Shown here: positions 12,817 to 13,961 of the stretch, piece after piece
Position numbering within the stretch: position 1 is the first letter of the stretch
How the letters are laid out: every line of letters begins with the position of its first letter
Source of the DNA: Escherichia coli
GTDB taxonomy: Bacteria; Pseudomonadota; Gammaproteobacteria; Enterobacterales; Enterobacteriaceae
NCBI RefSeq assembly: GCF_003334255.1
Contig: NZ_QOWU01000054.1
Length of the DNA stretch: 39,423 nucleotides
Reading direction: 5' to 3' (one strand)
Notes under the pieces: model-generated
Told to the model about the DNA's origin: nothing
Databases searched by the model: none
What the model saw: the letters and a program-made list of their open reading frames with translations, nothing else
Made by a program: the position numbers and the translations under genes

Positions 12817-13122
<306 letters not shown>

Positions 13123-13199
13123 TCAGGCGGCGATTTTAGCATGATCCGCAGATGCTAACGTAATTGTCAGTCAGGGAGTGGCTGGTACATATATGGCAA

Positions 13200-13220
13200 A
13201 AGCCCGGAAAATCCGGGCTT
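13200..13220 (-). terminator. Candidate stem-loop downstream of yifN on the minus strand
   Basis: AAGCCCGG-AAAAT-CCGGGCTT hairpin; weak T-tract on minus strand so low confidence. Confidence 0.3.
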
Positions 13221-13296
13221 CGCAGGTCCCTCAAGGGGAGAAAACTTAGGGCCTCTATGGGCTACAAAGTCATTATCGGGGATGGTTATTTTATTG

Positions 13297-13787
13297 TCAA
13301 TTTATGAGCGATATGGCATTGATTGACTTGATGACCGCCCTCTGTATGTCTGCAACCAACTCATGTGGCAAACATTGATTAAGATACCCTCTGTAAGTCC
13401 TTGCTCTGTTTAATCTGTTTCGACTGACTTGTTGTACCAGGTCGGCTTTGGCCCAACGAATCTGCTGATCAAAGAATTGCAGGTCATTGATAACATTACT
13501 GGCTATTTCAACATGCATTCCACGTTTTAACTTGTCTGGTCGCGAGTGGTTGATAATGGAACGACGATGCATGCGTTGCCATTAATTTTTCCGTTGAGCA
13601 CGACAACTAACCTGTTTTTTATCATTTCAGGAGGAATGCGGCCATCGTAATACGTCGTGCTGAACGGTCCATTTTGGCTAACAGGATAGTTACCAAAGTT
13701 GCATTCCAGTATTTCACCAACCTTAGGGCTGAAATTAATCGCCACGAGTAAACCTCTCCTTAGTAAACTCTGAAAAAGTAATAACAC
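13297..13787 (-). pseudogene. yifN: PemK/MazF (Kid)-family toxin-like gene split by a frameshift into two overlapping ORFs
   Basis: ORF track 13527..13787 (86 aa) and 13297..13572 (91 aa) on the same strand in different frames; N-part GEILECNFG...RLVVVLN...CIVVPLSTT and C-part GMHVEIASN...LPHELVADIQRAVIKSI resemble the two halves of Kid/MazF. Confidence 0.5.
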
Positions 13788-13961
13788 AACGTTACGACCC
13801 GATATTTTCTAAGTCTAATGGATTCACGATGAACTCCGATTTCGGTCTTCTCTCTCTGATTTAAACATCCGCAGCCAACCGGTTAGCGGCTTACACGCGG
13901 TCACATTCAAATGCGATTCTGCTACAATCCTCCCCCCGTTCGAAGATTGAGCAATACACCT

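Follow-up and report, generated by a model that had tools for sequence, protein, structure and literature searches.

The spacer between ppiC and rep in Escherichia coli holds a broken gene resembling toxins of the PemK/MazF family, which raises the question whether this gene is the orphaned remnant of a decayed, horizontally acquired toxin-antitoxin module, as a first-pass annotation of the DNA had proposed, or one half of a system whose other half is still in place. The DNA analysed here is a stretch of 39,423 nucleotides (the window) from contig NZ_QOWU01000054.1 of the E. coli assembly GCF_003334255.1, and the region concerned is the ilvC-ppiC-yifN-rep segment of E. coli K-12; a 671-bp query around the broken gene is 100% identical to K-12 MG1655 and to many other E. 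coli chromosomes. The gene is, with near certainty, yifN, the pseudogene that we take to be b3776/b3777, and RefSeq already annotates it as a frameshifted "PemK/MazF family toxin", with coordinates, frameshift note and product name that agree with those found here and without a partner RNA. The pseudogene alone is therefore ordinary, known and annotated. The new point lies just outside the interval 13297-13787 that the first-pass annotation had singled out: a conserved, structured small RNA (sRNA) gene with its own promoter that is tightly and reciprocally linked to the YifN subfamily (Table 1).

The sRNA gene follows yifN directly. Its sigma-70 promoter, identified in a promoter scan, matches the consensus at 11 of 12 positions, and the -35 element overlaps the yifN stop codon TGA (13299-13297). 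About 7 nt after the -10 element begins a sequence of roughly 70 nt, closed by a strong hairpin and a UUUU tract; the loops of its two short hairpins are similar to each other (C-A/U-U-N-G-A) and the spacer between them is rich in U. The element contains no open reading frame (ORF), and the insertions and deletions that it has undergone are not multiples of three. An RNA from this position has in fact been detected: Romero et al. 2014 (PMC4681348) reported, on the basis of RNA-seq and a northern blot in MG1655, a 79-nt sRNA, termed "ecr3777 (d+)", which lies on this strand between ppiC and yifO(N) and was presented as new and without an assigned function, and the same paper lists Conway et al. 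2014 as having seen it too. Spacer, strand and size agree with the element described here. In the literature that we could search, which is incomplete, we found no conservation analysis of ecr3777 and no link from it to YifN, and likewise no paper that connects YifN to an RNA or reports experiments on YifN; an earlier description elsewhere is possible. Among the families of Rfam 15 none matches the window at E <= 1, RF02913 (the pemK motif) included, and at the RNA position of 11 other loci the search returned nothing bar a noise-level match on the opposite strand of one of them (L012; 27.7 bits against a gathering threshold of 114). RF02913, a conserved RNA from the survey of "224 candidate structured RNAs", takes its name from the pemK genes with which it is associated; it occurs upstream of pemK genes of Firmicutes and is treated as cis-regulatory; at the 11 other loci it has no match at E <= 0.1. 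The best sub-threshold match of the window (13190-13278, minus strand), to RF01772, the rnk_pseudo leader of Pseudomonas rnk, scored 20 bits against a gathering threshold of 55, reflects a common UUGAGGG plus terminator and was judged to be noise.

The association of this RNA with yifN extends well beyond E. coli. A DNA alignment of yifN homologues from six unrelated contexts shows that the promoter and the RNA downstream of the gene are conserved, and that everything beyond them differs. In a search of 316 kb of yifN-homologue loci, a covariance model based on 10 sequences gave full-length matches of 25-97 bits on the same strand, 40-100 nt downstream of nearly every full-length YifN homologue, with no full-length match elsewhere in the 316 kb; the result was the same with a second model, for which 36 hits were used. 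Scores in the window and next to yifN homologues were 77-83 bits. The linked taxa include Enterobacterales, Pseudomonas, Xanthomonas, Legionellaceae, Cellvibrio, Roseateles, Herbaspirillum and Rubrivivax, and further matches come from two plasmids, one of the IncF/X type (77 bits) and a ColE1-type one of 4.3 kb, as well as from the gamma proteobacterium L18 and from Haemophilus; the element was also recognized by eye on the 6.3-kb plasmid pHN61. When metagenome contigs were scanned with a pattern derived from the RNA, 28 loci were found, 24 of them with yifN directly upstream, and the other four, which are located within long ORFs and are not recognized by the covariance model, are chance matches. 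Within the reach of the covariance model we found no intact yifN homologue without the RNA.

The arrangement of the two genes indicates that the RNA is not merely the tail of the yifN transcript. In Shewanella the RNA gene is convergent with yifN, and in Massilia and in one Herbaspirillum it lies about 0.8 kb upstream of yifN on the opposite strand, with two copies in that Herbaspirillum; on account of these three loci with convergent or divergent orientation the RNA is to be regarded as an independent gene and not as a 3' untranslated region (UTR). Ahead of most of the 36 RNA copies, and equally far from each, a promoter resembling TTGAC(A)-N17-TAnAAT is recognizable by eye, being weaker in a few. 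Over the 36 distinct RNAs 98.4% of alignment cells are paired and 13 of the 18 base pairs have changed on both sides; none of 500 shuffles reached the observed covariation values, and sliding the pairing partners destroys the signal. The changes are readily seen in individual clades: in Pasteurellaceae both stems have changed from GCC/GGC to CGG/CCG while the loops stay CUUAGA and CAUAGA, in a distant plasmid clade both hairpins read GCC-GCAA-GGC, and two betaproteobacterial loci have extra copies of the hairpin. In many homologues, and not in E. coli, an inverted repeat that may be an operator overlaps the -35 hexamer of the promoter of the sRNA, within the 60 nt that precede the RNA (loci L023, L028-L030, L005, L037, L047 and L049; examples are TTGACGTCAGCGTCA, TTGACGATTTCGTCAA and TTGACAGACCTGTCAA).

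Within E. coli the two elements likewise occur together, the RNA region being present in 4016 complete genomes and the yifN locus in 4017. Among five E. coli alleles the sRNA shows no difference at any of its 70 positions, as against up to 4.5% in the yifN coding sequence and up to 10% in the promoter spacer. Where yifN is disrupted, the RNA is kept, as in K-12, Serratia quinivorans (L040), Rahnella (L060) and Haemophilus (L061); where only short N-terminal remnants of yifN are left, the RNA is lost too. Taken together, we hold the linkage between the RNA and YifN to be real with high confidence.

These data bear directly on the view with which we began, namely that yifN is an orphan, decaying remnant of a type II pair that has lost its antitoxin, and that the RNA is merely the yifN terminator, a ppiC leader or the product of pervasive transcription. 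The frameshift of yifN in K-12, the lack of an ORF for a protein antitoxin and the AT-richness of the segment are all compatible with such a view. It is hard to reconcile, however, with an RNA that has its own conserved promoter, that is kept beside yifN whatever gene lies downstream (convergent ones included), whose orientation changes in some loci, which covaries outside the terminator and is invariant within E. coli, and with a YifN family that is intact and conserved across Proteobacteria without a protein antitoxin. We regard this explanation as very improbable, and as largely refuted. The labels "orphan" and "decayed module" accordingly have to be given up: the YifN subfamily is linked to a conserved sRNA gene, which is intact in K-12, and other sampled lineages of E. 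coli keep yifN intact under purifying selection. What K-12 has is a toxin gene that was recently inactivated and whose RNA partner survives, and it is not what is left of a type II pair.

The assignment of YifN to the PemK/MazF toxins, which had been proposed from the letters alone, is borne out by the Pfam match, the predicted fold and the RefSeq annotation. The repaired protein of 149 amino acids matches the Pfam family PemK_toxin (PF02452) with an E-value of 1.1e-10 and 42 bits over residues 38-141 (model positions 15-108/109), an alignment that spans the break, and the PF02452 domain is precomputed on nearly all YifN homologues; in IMG the homologues bear the name "uncharacterized protein YifN (PemK superfamily)". 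An AlphaFold2 model based on a family alignment of 38 sequences has a mean predicted local distance difference test (pLDDT) score of 79.5 and a predicted template-modelling (TM) score of 0.75, and all of its 50 best Foldseek matches in the Protein Data Bank (PDB) are toxins of the MazF type, the source species being S. aureus, B. subtilis, M. tuberculosis and E. coli, with E-values of 8e-6 to 6e-4, TM scores (target) of 0.63-0.79 and 10-19% identity. The model thus has the SH3-like barrel of the MazF/Kid/CcdB type. Sixteen residues are invariant among the 38 family sequences, Arg45 and Ser65 among them, and in an hhalign match that is weak (E 0.013, probability 3%) these two fall opposite Arg29 and Thr52, the catalytic residues of MazF from E. 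coli; they are the probable catalytic residues of YifN. Sequence-only searches of the PDB, with the YifN protein and with the family profile, reached no solved MazF, no NCBIfam model matches YifN and PADLOC finds nothing at the locus; YifN is therefore a distant and distinct subfamily. In the PHROGs collection the only match is to PHROG 15698, a family with no assigned function. A likeness of residues 81-123 to DarA of phage P1 (9ukm_I), with an E-value of 0.8 for the single sequence and 0.3 for the family profile, is insignificant and probably due to chance.

Homologues with 40-85% identity are encoded in other Enterobacterales, Pseudomonas, Xanthomonas, Shewanella, Legionellaceae, Roseateles, Herbaspirillum and Massilia, as well as on 134 plasmids, including mobilizable ones of 4-6 kb, and homologues are found in 11 small Vibrio phages. 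In a scan of one genome per species, Superficieibacter electus was the only member of the family Enterobacteriaceae that matched; it has the same rep-yifN-ppiC order and a protein that is 85% identical. In integrative elements the gene adjoins RadC, AbiJ or arrays of small unknown ORFs, and its protein-coding neighbours vary from context to context. The observation that no antitoxin-sized ORF lies nearby has held up: neither the yifN-rep nor the yifN-ppiC spacer of the window has a coding-strand ORF of at least 50 amino acids, and no conserved antitoxin-like small ORF adjoins yifN in the window or in about 45 homologous loci, so that at the protein level the observation holds across the subfamily. 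The comparison with other genomes, suggested earlier as a way to find an intact toxin together with its antitoxin, yielded the first and not the second, since intact yifN alleles were found and no protein antitoxin lies beside the homologues.

The RNA is probably the functional partner of YifN, and most likely an RNA antitoxin that would act by direct binding. We consider it somewhat probable that yifN and the sRNA form a module of a toxin and an RNA partner in which the RNA is a candidate antitoxin of a type III-like kind; that the RNA is an antitoxin and acts by binding YifN is close to an even call. MazF is a dimer, and the two hairpins of the sRNA could serve as a pseudo-substrate, as in type III systems, by filling both of the grooves with which a dimer of YifN would bind RNA; the loop sequence differs between YifN protein clades. 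Because no terminator lies between yifN and the RNA gene, the 3' UTR of read-through yifN mRNA would contain this RNA element as well. Of the two halves of such a module K-12 would have lost the toxin and kept the RNA, ecr3777, which would still be made. Our more specific proposal, that YifN and the two-hairpin sRNA represent an unrecognised class of RNA-antitoxin module, in which an endoribonuclease of the MazF fold is neutralised by a separately transcribed sRNA instead of a MazE-type protein, is a tentative one, to which we give somewhat less than an even chance.

A different mode of action, in which the sRNA represses yifN by base pairing at the ribosome-binding site in the way of type I or antisense systems, is suggested by the C/U-rich stretch UUUUCUCCCC: in E. 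coli its UUUCUCC can pair with the GGAGAGG of the yifN Shine-Dalgarno region over 7 bp, including two G-U pairs. Over the 36 RNA copies, however, the mean energy of the duplex between the sRNA and its cognate translation initiation region is -19.2 kcal/mol, compared with -19.6 for non-cognate and -18.2 for shuffled pairs; what is conserved is the hairpins with their loops and no seed that changes in step with the Shine-Dalgarno sequence, and the C-rich stretch is the 5' arm of hairpin 2, with covariation. Given that cognate pairs have no advantage, antisense pairing was rejected as the main mechanism, and we consider it improbable.

More weight is due to the possibility that YifN and the sRNA are true partners and that the RNA is not an antitoxin, serving as a dedicated substrate, as a cofactor in a ribonucleoprotein or as a regulator processed by YifN, or that the pair has a role in defence, anti-defence or plasmid biology. 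The linkage evidence would fit this equally well. The pair resides in ICE (integrative and conjugative element) and plasmid regions that abound in small unknown ORFs as well as RadC and AbiJ; most E. coli stably maintain an intact yifN, on which purifying selection acts; and PHROG 15698 has no known function. On the other hand, the predicted MazF fold, with the probable catalytic Arg and Ser retained, points to a ribonuclease of the toxin type, small mobilizable plasmids of 4-6 kb carry the pair much as they do addiction modules, and broken toxin genes keep the RNA and never the reverse, a pattern of decay that would be expected of a toxin and its antidote. We therefore consider a non-antitoxin partnership unlikely, with a chance that is still appreciable.

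The interpretation of the RNA as an antitoxin has to be set against the known classes of toxin-antitoxin systems. With the type II systems MazEF, PemIK, ChpBIK and Kid-Kis the locus shares the PemK_toxin domain, a predicted MazF-like fold, a conserved Arg and Ser/Thr at the probable catalytic positions and an occurrence on plasmids and mobile elements. It differs in that none of the roughly 45 loci has a protein antitoxin upstream or downstream of yifN, where type II systems have an adjacent and co-transcribed one, and in that YifN is about 40 amino acids longer, with a long insertion in the loop between β1 and β2 (low pLDDT). In a review from 2025 on the type II systems of E. coli, yifN is absent. 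From type I systems it is set apart by the toxin, a protein of 149 residues with a soluble ribonuclease fold and not a small hydrophobic peptide, and by cognate antisense duplexes that are no better than others. The type III systems ToxIN, CptIN and TenpIN are the closest in kind: a predicted endoribonuclease is combined with a dedicated, structured, repeat-containing RNA, without a protein antitoxin, on plasmids and mobile elements, and ToxN itself has a Kid/MazF-like fold. A toxin gene with a dedicated noncoding RNA gene and no protein antitoxin is what we find at yifN, with linkage in both directions. In type III systems, however, the RNA lies upstream of the toxin behind a leaky terminator and shares its promoter, whereas the yifN RNA is downstream, or elsewhere within 1 kb, and has a promoter of its own; type III RNAs consist of 2-5 tandem repeats of 34-36 nt, whereas the yifN RNA has two, rarely three, short hairpins; and YifN belongs by Pfam to the PemK family and not to ToxN/AbiQ, CptN or TenpN, and nothing is found by PADLOC. 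The locus thus appears to work most like a type III system and falls outside the architectural definitions of that type.

Several of these and other observations weigh against the interpretation that we favour. Gene order and promoter layout are unlike those of all known type III systems, and two hairpins are a minimal "repeat". The covariation was scored on an alignment fitted to the model and including many related sequences, so that independent events are fewer than the cell counts, and the alignment of the catalytic residues is based on the match of the folds together with a profile alignment that is weak. No match to the covariance model is obtained at the most distant homologues, those of the Vibrio phages (27% identity) and of an alphaproteobacterial metagenome-assembled genome (MAG; 33%), and in the Vibrio phages a small LexA-like ORF just upstream of the yifN homologue could be a protein antitoxin.

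MazF/PemK is the textbook type II family and is always described with protein antitoxins. If our interpretation is correct, a large MazF/PemK subfamily that travels with a dedicated sRNA would blur the boundary between types II and III, and it would explain many annotations of "orphan PemK/MazF toxins" in Proteobacteria and on plasmids. It would also provide a function for a K-12 sRNA whose role has been unknown since 2014, as part of a module that is common in Gamma- and Betaproteobacteria, where chromosomes, ICEs and small plasmids carry it. Owing to its RNA partner, the locus is a candidate for a new form of organisation among toxin-antitoxin systems.

The state of yifN in K-12 can be placed in the context of the species. 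Of 5426 complete E. coli genomes, 4017 contain the yifN locus and 1228 contain a 44-mer spanning the K-12 deletion, isolates from humans, animals and water included. Because so many genomes of such varied origin carry it, the deletion is a real allele of a lineage and not a sequencing error, as the frameshift reading of the first-pass annotation requires. The corresponding 45-mer with an intact site is found in a further 1090 complete genomes, the two counts together leaving about 1700 yifN-positive genomes unclassified, as nearby single-nucleotide polymorphisms defeat so short a query. All seven of the non-K-12 alleles that were read are intact, with 149 codons, and between divergent intact alleles the ratio of nonsynonymous to synonymous change (pN/pS) is 0.04-0.10 (for example, 15 synonymous as against 2-4 nonsynonymous changes), which indicates purifying selection on intact yifN; WP_000996692 of O157:H7 is an example of an intact YifN. 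The gene was inactivated in the K-12/phylogroup A lineage by a single-base deletion. Elsewhere, the insertion sequence IS1 lies in or beside yifN in several E. coli strains (hits H1, H86 and H98; L022), and Shigella and other lineages have differently truncated versions that form clusters of 109-135 amino acids, so that yifN has been inactivated repeatedly and independently.

The segment that carries sRNA and yifN is itself polymorphic. Its G+C content is 0.41-0.43 over 13250-13850, compared with 0.52-0.57 in ilvC, ppiC and rep, in agreement with the AT-richness noted earlier, and in E. coli without it the spacer between ppiC and rep measures 86 bp. Horizontal acquisition, also proposed before, fits the low G+C together with the presence/absence polymorphism of about 0.8 kb and the patchy distribution. 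In E. coli HH97 (NZ_CP116409.1; L004 1810-2480) about 700 bp of unannotated, C-rich, low-complexity sequence (ccccacccc...) replaces yifN in the ppiC-rep spacer; this filler is probably an artefact of assembly or base calling, and a clean yifN-less allele was used as the reference in place of HH97.

Table 1. Position of yifN, the sRNA gene and associated features in the window
Feature	Position	Strand	Details and evidence
AT-rich segment (sRNA, yifN and diverged rep upstream region), ~0.8 kb, approximate limits	13115..13945	.	present in ~4017, absent from ~1400 complete E. coli genomes
Partner sRNA (published as ecr3777, 79 nt)	about 13196..13265	-	two short hairpins, U-rich spacer, terminator
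sRNA intrinsic terminator	13196-13223	-	
sRNA hairpin 2, UCCC-CUUGA-GGGA	13227-13239	-	
sRNA hairpin 1, GCC-CAUAGA-GGC	13251-13262	-	
Sigma-70 promoter of sRNA	13272..13300	-	-35 TTGACA 13300-13295, 17-nt spacer, -10 GATAAT 13277-13272
yifN pseudogene, predicted PemK/MazF-family endoribonuclease gene	13297..13745	-	149 codons once repaired; RefSeq, Pfam, fold model
C-terminal ORF, 91 aa	13297..13572	-	ORF list; frame differs from that of 13527..13787
C-terminal YifN fragment, residues 71-149	13297..13535	-	-1 frame, inside the 91-aa ORF; alignment, tblastn high-scoring segment pairs
Longest N-terminal ORF, 86 aa	13527..13787	-	ORF list
N-terminal YifN fragment, residues 1-69, then Q-T-S-stop	13527..13745	-	holds Arg45 and Ser65
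Frameshift site, one coding-strand T missing	between 13536 and 13537	-	alignment with two intact E. coli alleles
yifN Shine-Dalgarno sequence GGAGAGG	13754..13760	-	8 nt before GTG at 13745; read from sequence

At the level of the reading frames the earlier description was largely accurate. The two overlapping minus-strand ORFs in different frames are present, and the deletion falls inside the interval 13530-13570 to which the break had been assigned; it changes CGC GAC CAT GAC AAG (R-D-H-D-K) to CGC GAC CAG ACA AGT TAA, and thereby ...RDHDKLK... to ...RDQTS*. For the N-terminal ORF the extent given was correct and its start needs revision, the GTG at 13787 being merely the one that yields the longest ORF. 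The true start is most likely the GTG at 13745, which is favoured because of its distance from the Shine-Dalgarno sequence and because RefSeq annotates it. A ribosome-profiling preprint (10.1101/520783) reports Ribo-RET signals of initiation for two in-frame starts of yifN, the annotated one and one further upstream.

Some features of the surroundings may be mentioned. The spacer between the sRNA terminator and ppiC (13099-13195), which adjoins the invariant sRNA, contains an indel of about 47 bp in a divergent E. coli lineage (L003, L018), with about 50% of its positions differing, and it includes two weak promoter-like sites for ppiC at 13170-13141 and 13126-13097 on the minus strand. In the loci L023-L025 (874-2856, minus strand) a UvrD-like helicase of 660 amino acids is divergently adjacent to the yifN homologue, in an element that also has AbiJ, an integrase and ParA; the arrangement resembles the divergent rep (window 13962 onward) and yifN of E. 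coli and Superficieibacter, and may be a coincidence. A functional link between yifN and rep or UvrD-like helicases, which two contexts suggest, was discarded as other contexts have no helicase. On an E. coli IncF/X plasmid (L069, 1182-1906 and 3679-3778) the yifN-sRNA pair adjoins two AgrB-like antisense RNAs (RF02891) and a ColE1-type RNAI (RF00106), so that RNA-based control elements are clustered around it. As for the most distant homologues, repeated UAGAGGUC/UGAGGGUC motifs follow the PemK-like gene of a Vibrio phage (L100, 1930-1990), and a -10-like box with a strong terminator follows that of the alphaproteobacterial MAG (L063, 2920-3070); the layout of a protein gene with a downstream RNA may thus reach beyond the core YifN family.

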